Sequence record: NC_101835.1
Direction: 5' to 3' (one strand)
Length of the DNA: 64,000 nt
DNA from: a phage
The translations under genes and the position numbers were made by a program. The notes beneath the pieces were generated by a model. The model did not search any database, was not told the DNA's origin, and worked only from the letters and a program-made list of their open reading frames with translations. This document shows, piece after piece, positions 4,856 to 63,116 of the stretch (position 1 is its first letter; every line of letters begins with the position of its first letter).

Positions 4856-4885
4856 TTGACAAAGCTTTGTTTAGATAGGTATAAT
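4856..4885 (+). promoter_or_regulatory. sigma70-like promoter (TTGACA-18-TATAAT)
   Basis: TTGACA at 4856-4861, TATAAT at 4880-4885. Confidence 0.6.
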
Positions 4886-29971: not shown

Positions 29972-30232
29972 TTACTTGTCAACACTATTTTTTAAATTAT
30001 TGTGGCGCAAAATGCTTAAAATCTCTTCAACGTCATCAACACGGCGGCAATTTTTAAACGCTACCAATTGCCCCATGATTTTAATCACTGGACGGCCTTG
30101 CCAGTGCCCCTGGAGAAAGCGCGCCTTGACTTTATCGGTGGAACTATCACGCCACCAAATGGCCTTGTTATTGCAGTAGTAAAAATTATTCAGGACAACA
30201 TCAACTTTATCAAAATTTTTTAATTTACGCAT
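29972..30232 (-). CDS. hypothetical protein
   Basis: Track ORF. Confidence 0.5.
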   Translation of the reverse strand: MRKLKNFDKVDVVLNNFYYCNNKAIWWRDSSTDKVKARFLQGHWQGRPVIKIMGQLVAFKNCRRVDDVEEILSILRHNNLKNSVDK

Positions 30233-56386: not shown

Positions 56387-56434
56387 AATAACTCCAAATA
56401 GAAAATCCCCGCCGAAGCGGGGTGGTATTAGAAA

Positions 56435-56815
56435 TTAATCGTAGTGTGCCAAAATCTCTCCATCGTTGCAAGTTCCCTCTACAAAGTTATGAAGATTCAT
56501 GCACTCATCTTGATAGAAGAATTTACCGCTTTTCAGCCGTAAGCCAAACAACTCCGCATCTCCACGATGGCAAGCCTCTACAAGTTCATAGATTTCATAC
56601 GGCAACTCTCCGTCGTCATGGAAGAACCCAGCCTTATCGTTGACATAGATGAAGAAATAATCACTGCTATCGCAAGCGTCCAATATTTTAAACCAGATTT
56701 CATCTACATCTTTTTCTCGGATATCGATCACGCAAGTGGAGCTGCATTCGTACTCCTTCTCCGGCTCCTCGGTCAATACCACCAGGTAGTTTCCCCGCTT
56801 ACCTACTTTAGCCAT
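56435..56815 (-). CDS. hypothetical acidic protein
   Basis: Track ORF. Confidence 0.5.
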   Translation of the reverse strand: MAKVGKRGNYLVVLTEEPEKEYECSSTCVIDIREKDVDEIWFKILDACDSSDYFFIYVNDKAGFFHDDGELPYEIYELVEACHRGDAELFGLRLKSGKFFYQDECMNLHNFVEGTCNDGEILAHYD

Positions 56816-56824
56816 ACAACCTCC

Positions 56825-58009
56825 TTAAGCTTTAGCCAAAATGGCGCTAAACTCTTCACCAAACTCTTTTACAATCTTCATCAGGTTTGGGTATGCTTTG
56901 ATCAGCTGAGCAACAATCTTGTCACGACCTTTACCGATAAGCAAGGCATTTCCTAAGGCATTAGGTTTCATCATCGCCATAAAGACTGAGAATACAAAAT
57001 CTCGGTTCTCGTCCTTGAAGTTTTCCCAAAGGAAATCGAGGAAGTTTGCCACACAGCTAACAAGATCTTCGTCGGAGATACTTGCATTTTCCATCATATT
57101 ACGAATAGCGATACAACCTTCAGATCCAAGAATCCACAAGATGTCTGGCTGTTTAGGGCCTACGTATTCTTTGCAACCTCCTGCCATAATCCGACCTATT
57201 TCCGGTAAGTTGCGTTTCTTGGTGTGGTAAGTCCAGATCTCTACCGCTGCAGTGTGACCAATAGCACCTTGTAGAAGAACACGGGCCATAGCGTCAGAAA
57301 TAATACCGCTGTCAAAATCGTGCAAGATATCAGATGCAGCAACCCAAGATCGCGGTGTGGCAAAAGATGGACAATTAATCTCAGCCATGGCCTCATAATT
57401 ATCAATAGCTGATGGAACTCTTTTCAGATATCCAATTACAGAGGAGTGCACCCCATTAAGGAATGCGTAGTCCTCAATAAACACCTCTGCGTTGCTTGTA
57501 ACTTCTACAATGATAAAGCGGTTAGCCAGAGGGGCTTCGAGCGCCGAAAGAACAGCACCATCTGTAGAACGGTTACCTGCAGCTACAAAAACAGAGCCCT
57601 TAGGGAATGCATAGGTGCCACACTTGTGGTCGAGCATAATCTGCATTGCAACCTTTTGCAGGTAGTTATCTGCATGAGTGAGCTCATCCAGAAAGACAAT
57701 TCCGCTCCAGTCAGGATCCGCAGGCCAAAATTCTGGGATTGCAAACACTGTACGTGTAGTCCCATCCGCTTCTACAGGGATAGGTAGCCCAGATAAGTCG
57801 GCAGGATCTTTATCTGACAGCCGCACGTCAACCAGGTTGTCATCTCTCTCACCGAACATATTATCAGCGATCTGCTTCATCACCTGACTCTTTCCCACAC
57901 CCATTGGTCCTAAAATCAGGACAGATCGGTTATGACGCTGGGCAAACTGAATGATAGCTGGCAACTCACGGACAGTGATTTGACCACTTTCAAATACGTT
58001 TCTTGACAT
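56825..58009 (-). CDS. MoxR/CbbQ-type AAA+ ATPase
   Basis: Walker A LILGPMGVGKSQ, Walker B IVFLDELTHAD. Confidence 0.7.
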   Translation of the reverse strand: MSRNVFESGQITVRELPAIIQFAQRHNRSVLILGPMGVGKSQVMKQIADNMFGERDDNLVDVRLSDKDPADLSGLPIPVEADGTTRTVFAIPEFWPADPDWSGIVFLDELTHADNYLQKVAMQIMLDHKCGTYAFPKGSVFVAAGNRSTDGAVLSALEAPLANRFIIVEVTSNAEVFIEDYAFLNGVHSSVIGYLKRVPSAIDNYEAMAEINCPSFATPRSWVAASDILHDFDSGIISDAMARVLLQGAIGHTAAVEIWTYHTKKRNLPEIGRIMAGGCKEYVGPKQPDILWILGSEGCIAIRNMMENASISDEDLVSCVANFLDFLWENFKDENRDFVFSVFMAMMKPNALGNALLIGKGRDKIVAQLIKAYPNLMKIVKEFGEEFSAILAKA

Positions 58010-58311
58010 TAGTAAAAGTCCTCTACTTGTGTGTAAGTGTTTTCAAAGTTTTCCAAAACAGATATCACATCGGATCTGTCAATATCGTACACAACTTCCC
58101 AGTTGTATGCAACCCTTTCTGCTGTTGCCTCTTCTGGCGCTAGTCGTCTGCTGGCATAAAAGAGTGTTGGAGTACACTTTCTTGCTTGCCCTCTAACTTT
58201 CCCATAATAATATCTGTGAATATCTTTGTCAAAATTTAACTCTTTTTCTGCACGAAGTTCATATTGCTGGTATAACATGTTTATTACTCTTTTAAGTGGC
58301 ATCCTTGCCAC
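58009..58311 (-). CDS. hypothetical protein
   Basis: Track ORF. Confidence 0.5.
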   Translation of the reverse strand: MARMPLKRVINMLYQQYELRAEKELNFDKDIHRYYYGKVRGQARKCTPTLFYASRRLAPEEATAERVAYNWEVVYDIDRSDVISVLENFENTYTQVEDFY

Positions 58312-58317
58312 TACCTG

Positions 58318-58698
58318 CTAGAATACGGTCCGAATCCAGACAAGGTTCTTATCTGCCCAATCATAGAGGCAAGTCATTGCACTGTTGAATTGCTCACACG
58401 GAGGATAATCTTCTTCCATCTGGCGCATAGCAGAGCCTTGTGGGTAAAGCTCCTGTGCTGCAAACCACGCGTCGTAGTCATCAACGGTGTCGAAGTAGTA
58501 TACAACATCCTCCAACTCAGGATCGAACTTTGAACTATCAGGATCCAGTTGTTCAGGGAACTTGGAGCGTAACTTGCCAGCCACAATACTTGCCAACTCG
58601 CTAACATGCTTATTGTCCCACTCCACTAGCTTCCCGCCTTCAGTGATGCGTCCTAACCACTGATCATGAAGGTCAACTGTTGTCTTCCACTGGGCCAT
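58318..58698 (-). CDS. hypothetical protein
   Basis: Track ORF. Confidence 0.5.
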   Translation of the reverse strand: MAQWKTTVDLHDQWLGRITEGGKLVEWDNKHVSELASIVAGKLRSKFPEQLDPDSSKFDPELEDVVYYFDTVDDYDAWFAAQELYPQGSAMRQMEEDYPPCEQFNSAMTCLYDWADKNLVWIRTVF

Positions 58699-58700
58699 TA

Positions 58701-58958
58701 TCAGTCCACCTCTTCTTCTCGTTGTAGTTCAAGATACCCGTAGGTCTGGACATCTTCAAGGGTGTGGAACTCCTCATCTGCCGCTAATGCACGAACAACT
58801 TGGCACAAAACCTTATGAGGAACTTCATCCAGACCAAGATTCAGTGCAGGGAACACCTTATCTAAGTCAACAAAATAAATGAACTGTAGCTCACCAGCTT
58901 CAAAAGGTGTATCTTCAATAAACATCTTCTCGGCATTAGTCAAGATCTGCACTTTCAT
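58701..58958 (-). CDS. hypothetical protein
   Basis: Track ORF. Confidence 0.5.
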   Translation of the reverse strand: MKVQILTNAEKMFIEDTPFEAGELQFIYFVDLDKVFPALNLGLDEVPHKVLCQVVRALAADEEFHTLEDVQTYGYLELQREEEVD

Positions 58959-59335
58959 TATTCTACCTCCTCTTCTTTTTCTTCGGCATTAGTTTCATGG
59001 CTACCCCACTCTGGAGTTTCCACCTCGATAGTAAACTCACGCACTACACGGTAATTACCCATGAAGCGCTCCACTTCGTCAAGGCTTACGGAGAAGCCAT
59101 TGGCAACCAGGTCTGCAGCACCCTCTTCTACCAGGTAGTCCAGATTGGCTTCCAGAGCTTCAGGCTCAAACCCTGTCAATGCAATCAGATAACCTTCCCC
59201 TTCATCAGGTAGGACAATACAGCCCAACTGATTTTCTTTAAAAAGGCAGTGACCATCATTATTGATCGGGTGTTCATTGCAGTAAATAGCTGCACGATAA
59301 GTAACTTTAGACATAGGTAAGGTCTCCTTAGGCAA
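58958..59335 (-). CDS. hypothetical acidic protein
   Basis: Track ORF. Confidence 0.5.
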   Translation of the reverse strand: MPKETLPMSKVTYRAAIYCNEHPINNDGHCLFKENQLGCIVLPDEGEGYLIALTGFEPEALEANLDYLVEEGAADLVANGFSVSLDEVERFMGNYRVVREFTIEVETPEWGSHETNAEEKEEEVE

Positions 59336-59606
59336 TTGTCATTTTACATTCTTGAAATTTTAACACAAGACGGTGATTGTGCCTAGTGTCTAAAAAGATT
59401 TTCTCAACCATCAGGCACACGGTATAACCGTCCATCTTGTTGATAACAAAATCTCCAGGGTGAGGGAGGATGTCTCCCGGATTGGGGAAACATAGTCCAC
59501 TCAGAAAGGCATCGTCAGTGGTGGACTTAATAGATTTCCACACACTGTCTGCCTGAACATGTTCACCGACGTAATATACATTACCACATGCCTTCATCAT
59601 AGTCAA
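59328..59606 (-). CDS. hypothetical protein
   Basis: Track ORF. Confidence 0.5.
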   Translation of the reverse strand: MTMMKACGNVYYVGEHVQADSVWKSIKSTTDDAFLSGLCFPNPGDILPHPGDFVINKMDGYTVCLMVEKIFLDTRHNHRLVLKFQECKMTIA

Positions 59607-60502
59607 ACCCTCGCATAAATTAAACTTGTATCAGTATACTTCTTTAATGGGTAAATATCCTGTCCATAGATGCAATCATTAAACACCTCATCTACCCAAA
59701 GGCTACACTTATATCCCATCATTTCTAAAACACCCATCTCTTCTTCGGTAAACTTATCACCGCTCTTGCAAGATGTCAATACCTCATTCTGAACTCTTGC
59801 TACCTCGAAGCGGTTATTGGCAATATCGCTATTGGCGATCAAATACTCACCTAGAGGGTGTGCGGCATTAAAGATGCACAGTGGACGGCTGACGTAATAG
59901 TCTCCGGGTGTATAAAAATTGTTGAGGTCTTTCACTAGAACATTCTTATCAGTCACTTCATTTATAACATCATGCATATCGCACATCTTTATATGTTTGA
60001 GGATTCCATCCCCCATCACAAAATAAAAACTTGCTGAGACACTTTCGGCATAGATCTTACTAGATCCGTTGTAGTTGTATTTTACTCGGATGCTAACGGG
60101 GGTTTTTCCTGTCGCGTTAGCCATCATCCAAAGAAATGGCAGCTCATACTTCTCCTCTGAGGAAACAAAAGGTGAGGTAGCCAGAGATCGAAAACCTCCA
60201 GAGAAGTTGAAAGTTACAGAACCGCTCCGGCGGTATGATACCGCGTATTCTACTTTTATATCGACATACCCATTGGAATAGGTGTGTCCTTCATTATCTA
60301 AATATGTCCACTTATCAGACCCAGATACCAATCTACGCTCAATAACCTTCATCACTATAGGAATTAATGGGTTGGTACAAACCGCTTTTGAAGTAGCTTT
60401 ATCATCTAAAGCCTCGTAAATTGCAGAAAGGATGTCTCCAGCTGAAAGATTGGTTGTTATATCCTGTTGCCACCGCGTACTAAAACTGTTAAGATTTGCC
60501 AT
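59603..60502 (-). CDS. hypothetical protein (299 aa)
   Basis: First gene of the leftward operon that ends with the MoxR ATPase. Confidence 0.55.
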   Translation of the reverse strand: MANLNSFSTRWQQDITTNLSAGDILSAIYEALDDKATSKAVCTNPLIPIVMKVIERRLVSGSDKWTYLDNEGHTYSNGYVDIKVEYAVSYRRSGSVTFNFSGGFRSLATSPFVSSEEKYELPFLWMMANATGKTPVSIRVKYNYNGSSKIYAESVSASFYFVMGDGILKHIKMCDMHDVINEVTDKNVLVKDLNNFYTPGDYYVSRPLCIFNAAHPLGEYLIANSDIANNRFEVARVQNEVLTSCKSGDKFTEEEMGVLEMMGYKCSLWVDEVFNDCIYGQDIYPLKKYTDTSLIYARV

Positions 60503-60584
60503 GAGTGAGTGCTCCTATGTTAGTTTTCTTTCGAATGGGTGCACTATATCGGAGATTTAGAGTAAAGTCAACACGTTTTTGATG

Positions 60585-60625
60585 TTGACATCTGTTGAGA
60601 CAATTGATAAGATTTCTTCACTTAC
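60585..60625 (+). promoter_or_regulatory. promoter with palindromic operator-like site
   Basis: TCAACA-N9-TGTTGA inverted repeat overlapping TTGACA-17-TAAGAT. Confidence 0.4.
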
Positions 60626-60644
60626 AGAGCACGAGAGACAACTC

Positions 60645-61622
60645 ATGAATCTTGAAAAATATTATACACCAGAAGAGTTAGAGCGCCTGCTCAAAAAATA
60701 TAGACGCAAACAGAATAATGCACGGAAACGAGATATAGAGTTCGACCTGTCGTGGGAAGAATACCTACTATTTGGTAAAAAACTTTTAGGGGAAGGGGTA
60801 TGCGACTACACCCTTATACCTTTCGACATGCACACAGATGAAAACGGACTGGGAAATCCTTTCTATCCATCTCTGGAGCGGATAGATGATGAAGGTCCTT
60901 ACGCAATTGATAATTGTTGTGTGGTAGGGTTGAGGTGCAACGCTCTGAAGGACTGTCTGGTAGATAAAAAGACTGCAATATTGATAAAAGACAAAACTGA
61001 TCGAAAAATTGTCCAGCAGATGATGCTCCACCTGAGCGAAGAGCGTATGGAGAAATTGAAAGGTGATTATACTTTCGAAGATTTCATCTTGCAATACGGG
61101 ACAGAAGAAGATAAACTAGCACTTTTTGACGAAGAGGAAGAAGATATGTCACCAATGCAGGACTTTAAAAATTTCATGGCTGATCGTGCAGCCAACAAAC
61201 ACATTTCAGATATCGTAAACGAAACTGTGACAGAAGAAATTGAAGAACAGAACTCTGAAGAGGAAAAAGAGCCTCAGGAGGTCGAAGAGGAGATTGCAGA
61301 AGAGGTTCCTGCACTGCCTGATGATGTTGAGGTTGCTAAGGCTTACACTTTCTATTGTCAAACGTTCTACGATGCAGGTATGAAAGTTGATCTGTCGTTC
61401 AGCCAATTTAAGAGTTCATATATTCGCAAATGCTGTGCTTTAACTGGTGAACGTCTCGGAGCTGGACTTAAACCGCTGTTGGTGACCGACTGGAATAAAG
61501 GTTTCACTAAAGGAAACTTTATGGTAGTATCTCCAATTATGGAAAAAGCCATGACAGATCTTATGAAGACCACTCGCATGACAATGACTGAGTTGGCAGG
61601 TATTTTCAAACACGTTAAATAA
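60645..61622 (+). CDS. endonuclease VII/HNH-like His-Me finger domain protein, acidic C-terminal half
   Basis: SLERIDDEGPYAIDNCCVVGLRCNALK resembles the endo VII core with His positions substituted; start placed downstream of the promoter. Confidence 0.4.
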   Translation: MNLEKYYTPEELERLLKKYRRKQNNARKRDIEFDLSWEEYLLFGKKLLGEGVCDYTLIPFDMHTDENGLGNPFYPSLERIDDEGPYAIDNCCVVGLRCNALKDCLVDKKTAILIKDKTDRKIVQQMMLHLSEERMEKLKGDYTFEDFILQYGTEEDKLALFDEEEEDMSPMQDFKNFMADRAANKHISDIVNETVTEEIEEQNSEEEKEPQEVEEEIAEEVPALPDDVEVAKAYTFYCQTFYDAGMKVDLSFSQFKSSYIRKCCALTGERLGAGLKPLLVTDWNKGFTKGNFMVVSPIMEKAMTDLMKTTRMTMTELAGIFKHVK

Positions 61623-61634
61623 TGACAGGGGCCA

Positions 61635-63116
61635 ATGGCCCCTTCTGGAGTTTTAATGGATAGCAGAAGTTCAGAAATCGTTGCCTCACAGAAAGATGAT
61701 GCCCTGAGAATGTTGCAGGCTGCACGTATGTATCTCCTTGAAAAGCTGCCGTTTTATGGCACACTGCTGTCAGGGTTGCAGTTCGTAGAAAACCACACAT
61801 GGTGCTCCACCATGGCAACCGACCATAAACGCATCTATTACAGCCCTGAGTTCATTATGGGATTGGCTGATGAACGCAAGGCTATTCTTAAGGCCTCTCT
61901 AACTGACAAGCAGTTTGAGATGGCTGAGGTTTTCTATTCCCCCAAATCTGTGAAAGAGGTGGCCTTTCTTCTGTCGCATGAGGTGGGGCATATTATCTGT
62001 GATCACCTGGTCCGTGGTAAAAGCTTTGAGCCGGAACTGTTCAATATTGCTTGTGATCACGTTATCAACACAGGCCTTGTGGTTGACTTTAGCAAACCTC
62101 CTTGTGTTTTCTTCTCGAAGGGGAAAAGCACTACGTTCGTGAAAGGTAAGCCTTTTGGCTTCTTAGCCAGCTGCTACTGCGACATGAAGTTTCATGGATG
62201 GATTGCTGAGAACGTTTATGCAGTTCTTGATAAGCAAAGAGATCAGAATAACGGTAAAAGTAAGAGCGGTAAAGGTGAGAACTCTCAAGAAGATAAGCGA
62301 CAAACCGATGATCACATGAGTGGTAACGGTGGCACCAGTGATGATCTTGGAAAGGCTATGGGGTATGATCAGCCACAACCTGTAATCAGTCAATCTGATA
62401 AAGATCAGGCCATGCAGGACTCTGGTGACATGCTGGAGGCAGCAATGCAAGCTTCCGGAGGTCGTTGCCCTGAGGCGGTTCGTGAGTTTGTCAAGAATAG
62501 AGGTAAGCCTGTAATTAATTATATAGACATCATCAAGCAACGCATGTTGTCTAAACGAAAGGCTGAACTGACCTACAGAAAACCTGGTCGCCGATCTGGG
62601 TCTTTGACCAGCACAATGCGAAAAGTTGGGGCTATAAACAAGAACCAGCACGTTATTGTTCCTGGTCGTAATCCGGAAAACACCATAGATATTGTGGTAG
62701 CTTTAGACGTTTCTGGCTCGATCTCTCAAAGAACTTTAAAGAAAATGTTCAATGAAATCACCGGATTGTGCAATCTGTATAAAGAGTTTAAGGTTACAAT
62801 GTTCTGTTGGTCAACTGAAGTCGGAGAGGTTAAAGTATACACTCGCGGCAACATAGACGAGATGATCAACTATGAGGTACACTCAACATGGGGCACAACA
62901 GCTGCTTGCGTGTTCGAGTATCTGGATGCCAACATACCGAATGCAAAAGATGTCATCGTCCTGACCGACCTATACTTTGAGCATAACTTTGAACAAAAGG
63001 CTGTTGACAACAAGTGGAAAAAGTACGATACTTTATGGGTTCTCACCGAAGGGTATAATAAAAATTATATCCCTAGCTTTGGGAAAACTGTGGAATTAAT
63101 CGAGTACGCTAAGTAA
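61635..63116 (+). CDS. VWA-domain protein with N-terminal HExxH metallopeptidase-like domain
   Basis: HEVGH zinc motif; MIDAS motif DVSGSIS; typical partner of MoxR ATPases. Confidence 0.65.
   Translation: MAPSGVLMDSRSSEIVASQKDDALRMLQAARMYLLEKLPFYGTLLSGLQFVENHTWCSTMATDHKRIYYSPEFIMGLADERKAILKASLTDKQFEMAEVFYSPKSVKEVAFLLSHEVGHIICDHLVRGKSFEPELFNIACDHVINTGLVVDFSKPPCVFFSKGKSTTFVKGKPFGFLASCYCDMKFHGWIAENVYAVLDKQRDQNNGKSKSGKGENSQEDKRQTDDHMSGNGGTSDDLGKAMGYDQPQPVISQSDKDQAMQDSGDMLEAAMQASGGRCPEAVREFVKNRGKPVINYIDIIKQRMLSKRKAELTYRKPGRRSGSLTSTMRKVGAINKNQHVIVPGRNPENTIDIVVALDVSGSISQRTLKKMFNEITGLCNLYKEFKVTMFCWSTEVGEVKVYTRGNIDEMINYEVHSTWGTTAACVFEYLDANIPNAKDVIVLTDLYFEHNFEQKAVDNKWKKYDTLWVLTEGYNKNYIPSFGKTVELIEYAK

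Follow-up and report, generated by a model that had tools for sequence, protein, structure and literature searches.

Do two proteins that are encoded on opposite strands, 3.6 kb apart and in separate transcription units, form the halves of a single machine and, if they do, is that machine a protease? The question is raised by a locus in phage sequence record NC_101835.1, of which we analyzed a stretch of 64,000 nucleotides (hereafter, the window). One of the proteins is an AAA+ ATPase (56825–58009, minus strand); the other (61656–63116, plus strand) joins a von Willebrand factor A (VWA) domain to a domain bearing an HExxH motif, and is called the VWA-peptidase below. Their source is a 136-kb, non-jumbo myovirus, and the region (~7.5 kb) is 96–99.9% identical to that of more than 100 sequenced genomes of Vequintavirus, the rV5-like myoviruses of E. 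coli. A first-pass annotation had read the ATPase as MoxR-type, the VWA protein as its partner, and the pair as a regulated protease, transcribed divergently from a control region with a palindrome. The evidence from gene neighborhoods supports the partnership of the two families, and we think it somewhat probable that the pair works as a split AAA+ protease; the palindrome is better viewed as a by-product of two promoters.

Domain identities of the two proteins

The assignments depend on the following features, for which the coordinates of the ATPase motifs, the HExxH motif and the DVSGS motif were checked.

56825–58009, minus strand: MoxR-class AAA+ ATPase, 394 amino acids (“MoxR ATPase” of rV5, N4 gp24 homolog; phrog_1297 at 2e-110)
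57887–57910, minus strand: Walker A motif, GPMGVGKS
57683–57697, minus strand: Walker B motif, VFLDE
57569–57580, minus strand: likely sensor-1, AGNR
57515–57529, minus strand: likely Arg finger, LANRF
57344–57358, minus strand: likely sensor-2, TPRSW
61656–63116, plus strand: VWA-peptidase, 486 amino acids (rV5 gp012, N4 gp25 homolog), with a zincin-like metallopeptidase domain (DUF2201_N, residues ~1–300) and a VWA domain (DUF2201, residues ~300–486)
61977–62006, plus strand: metal-binding/catalytic motif HEVGHIICDH (H108, E109, H112, H117)
62055–62057, plus strand: a further invariant Asp, D134, in ACDHVI (62049–62066)
62706–62720, plus strand: motif DVSGS (D351, S353, S355) of the metal ion-dependent adhesion site (MIDAS)
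62895–62897 and 62967–62969, plus strand: the remaining MIDAS residues, T414 and D438

The ATPase open reading frame (ORF) lies exactly where the first-pass annotation had placed it, and its ATG shares bases with the stop codon of the ORF that precedes it (TAATG). Nine residues are invariant in an alignment of 39 homologs: G37, G39, K40, S41, D108, E109, N146, R164 and R220, the last three being assigned to sensor-1, the Arg finger and sensor-2 by motif position rather than by structure. The predicted AAA+ catalytic set is intact. Matches of the protein to known AAA+ families reach only the Walker A region, and a direct sequence search of the PDB likewise returned nothing above Walker-A-level matches. 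Its full-length homologs at E ~1e-45 bear AAA_3, AAA_5 and bpMoxR domains (PF07726, PF07728 and PF20030), and BLASTP shows it to be 31% identical (6e-37) to a bona fide AAA_5 ATPase that adjoins a DUF2201 gene in Sulfurivermis. It is by this transitive homology that we place the protein among the MoxR-type Pfam families.

The AlphaFold2 (AF2) model of the ATPase (predicted local distance difference test, pLDDT, of 86) contains two beta-hairpins: one, at residues 75–90, separates beta2 from the Walker B strand, and the other, a small one at residues 129–134, precedes the sensor-1 strand (138–145). A helix-2 insert and a pre-sensor-1 beta-hairpin define the superclade of MoxR, chelatases, dynein and Midasin (Iyer et al. 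2004; Erzberger & Berger 2006); in the model, the two hairpins sit where these elements lie. Foldseek matched the model to NorQ (4.6e-8), CbbQ2 (9e-8) and the MoxR protein CHU_0153 (1e-5), with NorQ–NorD complexes also among the best matches, and a profile of the ATPase family matched Midasin in the PDB (1.6e-10). The invariant motifs, the domains of the homologs, the structural matches to NorQ and CbbQ2, and the profile match to Midasin together support the designation “MoxR-type”, as a divergent subfamily.

The frame of the VWA-peptidase had been given as 61635–63116. The gene is real, but the start was probably set 21 nt too far upstream. The ATG at 61635 sits in the loop of a GC-rich hairpin (61627–61643); the likely start, at 61656, is preceded by GGAG at 61647–61650 (six bases upstream) and is the one used in relatives. 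Pfam recognizes two domains in the product, both above their gathering scores: DUF2201_N, a “putative metallopeptidase” (PF13203; 8e-29, 101.5 bits vs. a cut-off of 23.2), and DUF2201, a “VWA-like” domain (3e-11). The family is a large one, with 33,742 representatives after clustering at 50% identity, 15,008 of them at E <= 1e-30; nearly all of the best 150 are full-length matches. A direct sequence search of the PDB found no match. In the AF2 model (pLDDT 82), a disordered linker rich in Gly and Asp joins a helical N-terminal domain to the VWA domain, whose fold was confirmed: its top Foldseek match is the VWA domain of NorD in the NorQ complex, and a profile of the family matches the MIDAS strands of the integrin I-domain.

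Is the HExxH domain a peptidase, as had been proposed? Our alignment makes this plausible. Among 45 homologs ranging from 20 to 82% identity, the motif HExxHxxxxH, with its catalytic Glu, is invariant (45/45), as are D134, the five MIDAS residues (45/45) and the G413-T414 pair. The third metal ligand would be either H117 or D134. Since the Glu of HExxH is invariant, we infer that the conserved site favors catalysis over the mere binding of a metal.

A different label, “HNH endonuclease”, has been attached to the VWA-peptidase by phrog_1314 and RefSeq. It is a propagated mis-annotation, because the protein has no HNH domain: Pfam finds only DUF2201_N and DUF2201, and the model shows a helical zincin-like domain and a VWA domain. 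The same label is found on the Srd-like protein encoded by the preceding gene (phrog_3118) and on three homologs of the VWA-peptidase (L006 10045–11598; L008 7207–8433; L021 9081–10265, in PA5oct). Searches of NCBIfam and PADLOC gave no meaningful match, and we rejected the idea that the pair is a known defense system.

Gene linkage and co-inheritance

The claim that the two proteins belong to cognate families is upheld by their structural matches to NorQ and NorD and by a nearly obligatory adjacency of the two genes elsewhere. In Sulfurivermis, the homologous ATPase gene lies directly 5' of the DUF2201 gene and in the same orientation. All 77 gammaproteobacterial loci with available upstream DNA have the ATPase gene 5' on the same strand, at a distance of up to 700 bp in 74; this count covers a single gammaproteobacterial clade, as a narrow bacterial alignment served as the query. 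The order ATPase, then VWA, on one strand recurs in a Sulfitobacter N4-like phage, in phages and contigs from metagenomes (L003, L005, L102, L103, L104 and L105 are among these loci) and in Certrevirus CR9, a member of the subfamily of the phage studied here. Between one and four ORFs separate the genes in LIT1 and PA5oct, and an ATPase gene upstream on the same strand is found neither in the window nor in Seunavirus PVP-SE1. Adjacency is the typical arrangement, not a requirement. Among the lineages examined, only Vequintavirus and Seunavirus (PVP-SE1) have the divergent, split layout; because it is common to both, the split is old.

The two genes are also inherited together. In a tblastn-type survey of 50,697 phage records, the ATPase matched 671 and the VWA-peptidase 812, with near-identical counts by host genus. 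Their sequences have diverged in parallel: ATPase and VWA-peptidase identities are 48–53% and 43–47% in Seunavirus-like phages, 35% and 35% in CR9, and ~25% and ~22% in N4-like phages. Of an 8-kb region surrounding them, only these two genes are kept in all three genera (Vequintavirus, Seunavirus and Certrevirus), and they are the only genes of the region that CR9 shares. We considered a single inversion from the adjacent layout of CR9; there are no flanking ORFs common to the genera. Overall, the gene-neighborhood evidence supports the view that the ATPase and VWA-peptidase families form a cognate pair.

Might the Vequintavirus proteins nevertheless have ceased to be partners, each acquiring a role of its own after the genes were separated? 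Their placement on opposite strands, at a distance and in different transcription units, would fit such a history. Against it, the split is old (it is shared with Seunavirus at 45–50% identity), yet all catalytic and MIDAS residues have been kept and the divergence has remained parallel. Furthermore, both genes are retained in every Vequintavirinae genus examined, whereas their neighbors are not, and other phages tolerate intervening ORFs. We regard a loss of partnership as very improbable.

Several of the homologous loci have features of their own. On metagenomic contig L104 (526–6218), genes for a 1090-residue SNF2-type helicase, a MoxR ATPase (AAA_3) and a DUF2201 peptidase-VWA protein follow one another on one strand, possibly a three-gene variant of the module. 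In sulfur-oxidizing Gammaproteobacteria (L002 7297–9445; L022–L101), the pair is chromosomal; a conserved 370-residue protein that lacks a Pfam family is encoded 3' of it in 30 of 70 loci, and in Sulfurivermis a ferrochelatase gene follows. The homologous ATPase of PA5oct, gp149 (L021 5079–6194), carries the note “ESI-MS/MS”, which denotes detection by mass spectrometry; in that phage, the ATPase and VWA-peptidase genes have a homing endonuclease inserted between them.

Possible function of the pair

What might such a pair do? On balance, we lean toward regarding it as the Vequintavirus copy of a widespread two-component module that works as a split, adaptor-guided AAA+ protease. The analogues behind the proposed mechanism are NorQ–NorD, CbbQ–CbbO, RavA–ViaA and Midasin. 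A hexamer of the ATPase would dock the VWA domain, and a specific target protein would be captured through an acidic residue that the MIDAS site binds. Pulling or twisting driven by ATP would remodel either this target or the long disordered linker, thereby exposing the target to the fused peptidase, which would cleave it. Beyond domain identity and gene linkage, we infer every step of this scheme. The module would act early or in the middle of infection, before or during replication and not in late morphogenesis, because its genes lie behind promoters of the type used by host RNA polymerase and are positioned among early or middle genes. In the window these are rIIA/B, the Dda helicase gene and the Srd-like gene; in N4-like phages the pair has RNAP2, dUTPase, ThyX, a helicase and DNA polymerase as neighbors. 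Co-expression of the two proteins is plausible.

The closest solved structures, those of NorQ–NorD, embody the same logic as the phage pair (as do CbbQ–CbbO and RavA–ViaA): a MoxR hexamer with a MIDAS-bearing VWA partner encoded alongside. In the NorQD complex, a finger of the VWA domain enters the pore of the ATPase, which remodels a linker of its partner (PMC13036017). Unlike the window protein, NorD, CbbO and ViaA lack a peptidase domain, and they act on known clients, inserting a metal or activating an enzyme; the phage proteins are 9–20% identical to systems of this type. FtsH and Lon offer only a functional analogy, that of an ATP-driven AAA+ ring coupled to a peptidase (a HExxH zincin in the case of FtsH). 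Those enzymes unite ATPase and protease in a single chain and thread their substrates through the pore; here, the ATPase comes from the MoxR clade, and the peptidase is carried by a VWA adaptor that is a different polypeptide. A profile search detected no homology of the window's peptidase domain to FtsH.

These likenesses bring up the possibility that the pair is a non-proteolytic chaperone for maturation or metal insertion, akin to NorQD, CoxDE, CbbQO and the chelatases, with HExxH serving as a site that holds metal. Indeed, all biochemically understood MoxR–VWA pairs are remodeling or metal-insertion machines rather than proteases (PMC13036017, PMC9976466), and the nearest structures are those of NorQ and NorD. 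The Sulfurivermis operon stands beside a ferrochelatase gene, and the phage pair beside metalloenzymes of nucleotide metabolism. But the Glu of HExxH, which is the general base of zincins and is not needed to hold a metal, is invariant in all 45 homologs; Pfam places the domain in a putative metallopeptidase family with 101 bits; and no specific client enzyme co-occurs with the pair across the lineages examined. We consider a purely non-proteolytic role quite unlikely.

The phage relatives of the pair bear on when and for what it might be used. N4 gp24/gp25, a core pair of the Schitoviridae, is homologous: tblastn of both window proteins in N4-like genomes gave E-values of 1e-8 to 1e-21, and the ATPase of the Sulfitobacter N4-like phage matched the window ATPase at 1e-17 by BLASTP. 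These are two of 14 core genes, belong to the middle phase and are expressed before the late genes (PMC4193335). As in the window, they encode an ATPase and a vWFA protein, in that order in N4. The N4-like genes are adjacent or one ORF apart on a single strand, in an RNAPII-dependent middle region by the replication genes; those of the window, by contrast, are split into divergent sigma70-type operons, and the proteins are only ~21–27% identical to their N4-like counterparts. The “chaperone-cochaperone pair” of MoxR and MPTase-vWA described in the group 2.2 jumbo phages (PMC7824862) has the same architecture, with an N-terminal metallopeptidase fused to vWA, and the window proteins match those of RaK2/GAP32-like jumbo phages at 1e-26 to 1e-46. 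It differs from the present case, in which the phage is not a jumbo phage, the genes are early and the two stand apart. The Acidianus two-tailed virus also encodes a pair, p618 (MoxR) and p892 (VWA), which has been cited as a precedent for a viral chaperone role (PMC7824862). That virus is archaeal, and its pair lacks a peptidase domain and is linked to extracellular tail development.

Several points weigh against a split protease. The window ATPase falls below the Pfam gathering thresholds (16.4 vs. 22 bits for AAA_5; 15.8 vs. 27 for bpMoxR), and the N-terminal domain of the VWA-peptidase has only faint profile matches to solved proteases, in the HExxH regions of selecase, M48/BepA and HtpX (E 0.03–0.4). 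The literature searched contained no experiment on interaction, ATPase activity or proteolysis for any family member. Co-expression is assumed for genes 3.6 kb apart on opposite strands, and as a literature search found no Vequintavirus transcriptome, the timing given above is taken from promoter type and neighboring genes. Finally, Iyer, Anantharaman, Krishnan, Burroughs & Aravind (2021) proposed a role in virion assembly for the homologous pair of the group 2.2 jumbo phages (PMC7824862), the ATPase gp149 of PA5oct is flagged “ESI-MS/MS”, and in roseophage RPP1 the gp24/gp25 homologs have four virion-protein genes beside them, within a “second structural module” of the mid phase (PMC4193335).

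These last three points belong to the alternative put forward by Iyer et al. (2021), in which MoxR–vWA is a chaperone that assists the folding or assembly of a structural component, and the peptidase trims structural proteins. The window proteins do match those of the jumbo phages concerned, the ATPase to that of GAP32 at 5e-34 and the VWA-peptidase to homologs from phages of 350 kb (1e-39 to 1e-46). At all of the phage loci examined, though, the pair stands among early or middle, replication or nucleotide-metabolism genes, and not in head or tail modules. Here it is found behind sigma70-type promoters and next to rIIA/B and Dda, and chromosomal bacterial orthologs that have no phage context keep the pair as well. 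The mass-spectrometry note in PA5oct is also attached to an exonuclease, and is thus no proof of a structural role. A function in virion assembly seems unlikely to us, albeit less so than a purely non-proteolytic role.

We found no published assay of peptide-bond hydrolysis by the DUF2201_N family in the literature searched, nothing useful on rV5 or PVP-SE1 in connection with MoxR or on COG3864, and no virion mass spectrometry for the ATPase or the VWA-peptidase in the paper on the Vequintavirus O177. The paper on CRISPRi-ART fitness screens (T4, T5, SUSP1 and PTXU04) does not mention MoxR, vWA or rV5; neither of its non-model phages, SUSP1 and PTXU04, appears to carry the pair.

Divergent promoters, the palindrome and neighboring features

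The first-pass annotation described the two genes as lying in divergent operons around a shared control region at 60503–60650, with a TCAACA-N9-TGTTGA palindrome over the -35 element. The elements concerned are these.

60543–60571, minus strand: sigma70-type promoter of the minus-strand operon, with -35 TTGACT (60566–60571), a 17-nt spacer and -10 TATAGT (60543–60548); 10/12 in the promoter scan
60585–60613, plus strand: sigma70-type promoter of the plus-strand operon, with -35 TTGACA (60585–60590), a 17-nt spacer and a TG-extended -10, TAAGAT (60608–60613); 10/12 plus the TG
60567–60589, no strand: inverted repeat GTCAACA (60567–60573)-N9-TGTTGAC (60583–60589), which amounts to two extended -35 elements back to back
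58204–58232, minus strand: promoter-like TTGACA-N17-TATTAT inside ORF 58009–58278, ~195 nt 5' of the ATPase ATG; at 11/12 the best of the scan, and identical in phage AlexBoehm

The operons are literally divergent, but the ATPase gene is separated from the putative control region by six ORFs (~2.5 kb), and the VWA-peptidase gene by one, the Srd-like gene. The intergenic region in question spans 60503–60644, as the next gene starts at the ATG at 60645 (the mechanical ORF list had a TTG at 60579). Both promoters are conserved. Seven Vequintavirus genomes keep both hexamers of the minus-strand promoter, apart from one altered base in the -10 of phage Aya, and the -35 of the plus-strand promoter is invariant in seven relatives. 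In PVP-SE1, the same place has TGTTGACA-N17-GATAAT, and a promoter is annotated there in the PVP-SE1 record. The site at 58204–58232 is possibly an additional promoter for the ATPase gene.

The palindrome exists as described, and indeed extends to seven-nucleotide arms, GTCAACA-N9-TGTTGAC; the window has a single copy, and 100 shuffles yielded none. Its reading as a special control element fares less well. Each arm is the extended -35 (TGTTGAC) of this phage. That half-site is present 30 times in the window against 11 expected (2.7-fold over), and 16 of the 52 TTGACN-N16-18-TAnnnT sites, nearly all of which are co-oriented with the local genes, have TG before the TTGACN (31% vs. ~6%). Throughout the 64-kb region, the phage seems to depend strongly on promoters of the host's sigma70 type. 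With two divergent promoters that share an extended -35, a dyad therefore arises automatically. The details of the dyad are not conserved: among the seven genomes aligned (the window and six other Vequintavirus phages), the seventh pair is found only in the window and AlexBoehm and is lost in the other five, the spacer has gained a T in one relative (L017), and PVP-SE1 keeps the divergent promoters, with -35 elements 3 nt apart, but has no such palindrome. An operator is unneeded because neither the seventh pair nor the spacer length is conserved, and we conclude that the palindrome is, as far as can be judged from the aligned sequences, a by-product of two back-to-back promoters.

If the palindrome were an operator after all, a dimeric regulator of phage or host origin would bind GTCAAC-N11-GTTGAC, repress both divergent promoters and so co-regulate the ATPase and VWA operons. 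In favor of this, the two -35 hexamers are overlaid by perfect 7-bp arms that occur nowhere else in the window, and the 6-bp arms are conserved in seven relatives. The only hint of selection for symmetry comes from Aya, in which the arms have undergone a symmetric double change (GTCAAC...GTTGAC to GTCAAT...ATTGAC); by our own estimate, a single such change has a chance expectation of ~5%. Given arms that equal the extended -35 consensus, overrepresented as it is, together with the loss of the seventh pair, the longer spacer of L017 and the palindrome-free PVP-SE1, we judge an operator decidedly improbable. A scan of IMG/VR for copies of the intergenic region yielded one true relative and six chance matches.

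A composite alternative adds the operator to a narrower version of the protease. It holds that the pair is an early-acting, ATP-driven, adaptor-guided protease with which large lytic phages destroy or process one specific host protein (e.g., a defense or housekeeping factor captured via MIDAS), and that the dyad is a real operator which shuts off both early operons at once. Such a protease would explain the core status of gp24/gp25-type pairs in N4-like phages and the retention of the pair in all Vequintavirinae genera examined. The early/middle context and the invariant catalytic Glu favor the part concerning a host protein, but the operator part is favored only by the one symmetric change in Aya. 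As a whole, we find this composite rather unlikely.

Examples of the 52 sites, which show a preference for the extended -35 TGTTGACA, are found at 4856, 7178, 14501 and 14989 on the plus strand and at 29982, 36286 and 41537 on the minus strand. Three promoter-like sites on the minus strand (27667, 31411 and 32033) share a longer string, ATGGCC-TTGAC[TG]-N18-TAAA[CT]T, which suggests a repeated element or paralogous coding sequence.

Other features of the two transcription units are given below.

56396–56422, minus strand: intrinsic terminator, CCCCGC-TTCG-GCGGGG then ATTTTCTATTT, found by a terminator scan; it ends the unit of the ATPase and a 126-residue ORF
60645–61622, plus strand: Srd-like/endonuclease-VII-like gene, 325 amino acids, the first of the plus-strand operon (phrog_3118 at 9e-111)
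61627–61643, plus strand: GC-rich hairpin AGGGGCC-AAT-GGCCCCT in the gap between the Srd-like and VWA-peptidase genes (minimum free energy -14 kcal/mol; z-score -1.2 vs. shuffles)

The minus-strand unit runs from 60543 through the six ORFs, the ATPase gene and the 126-residue ORF (56435–56815) to the terminator. The plus-strand unit consists of the Srd-like gene, the hairpin and the VWA-peptidase gene. As a terminator, the hairpin was rejected: it is stable, but no more so than shuffles, the plus strand has no clean T-run, and the terminator scan flags it as terminator-like on the minus strand only. It is a possible attenuator or RNA-stability element.

The Srd-like protein has weaker PHROG matches to T4 Srd, a decoy of sigma70 (4e-14, 3e-9), and to endonuclease VII (2e-10). 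It has an acidic central region and is labeled “anti-sigma factor” in relatives; a Pfam search of it found no family. Its gene stands just 5' of the VWA-peptidase gene in PVP-SE1 as well, and the two may be functionally linked. The wider neighborhood (rIIA, rIIB, a Dda-like helicase, a SleB-type cell-wall hydrolase and many small ORFs) is typical of early or accessory phage genes. One of the neighbors, at 59603–60502 on the minus strand, is called a “putative alpha-1,3-fucosyltransferase” in many relatives. This name looks unsupported: the protein has no Pfam or NCBIfam match, and its PHROG is one of unknown function. Sixteen GenBank records of “Campylobacter phage” (MG0656xx, some marked UNVERIFIED, host C. 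jejuni) are 92–99.9% identical to the region and are classed as Vequintavirus; the host given is almost certainly an error that arose from contamination or mis-assignment.

How much of this is new? The pairing and its labels were already known. Curated relatives, including Bas56 AlexBoehm, carry the gene names “ATPase/MoxR ATPase” and “putative metallopeptidase”, and the phage pair was described by Iyer et al. 2021 (PMC7824862). We regard the finding as a routine annotation that was read correctly, save that too much was made of the palindrome. To it, the window adds a clear case of the split, divergent layout, the correction of a start codon and the tracing of the palindrome to two promoters; it does not make the question of the target more tractable.

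That question has a reach beyond this phage. The pair is one of few that are common to very different large lytic phages, having been found in N4-like podoviruses, rV5-like myoviruses, the RaK2-like and PA5oct jumbo phages, and a cyanophage. To identify the target of so widespread a core module would close a genuine gap in phage biology, and would add a proteolytic branch to the MoxR–VWA machines, which so far comprise only remodeling and metal-insertion chaperones.

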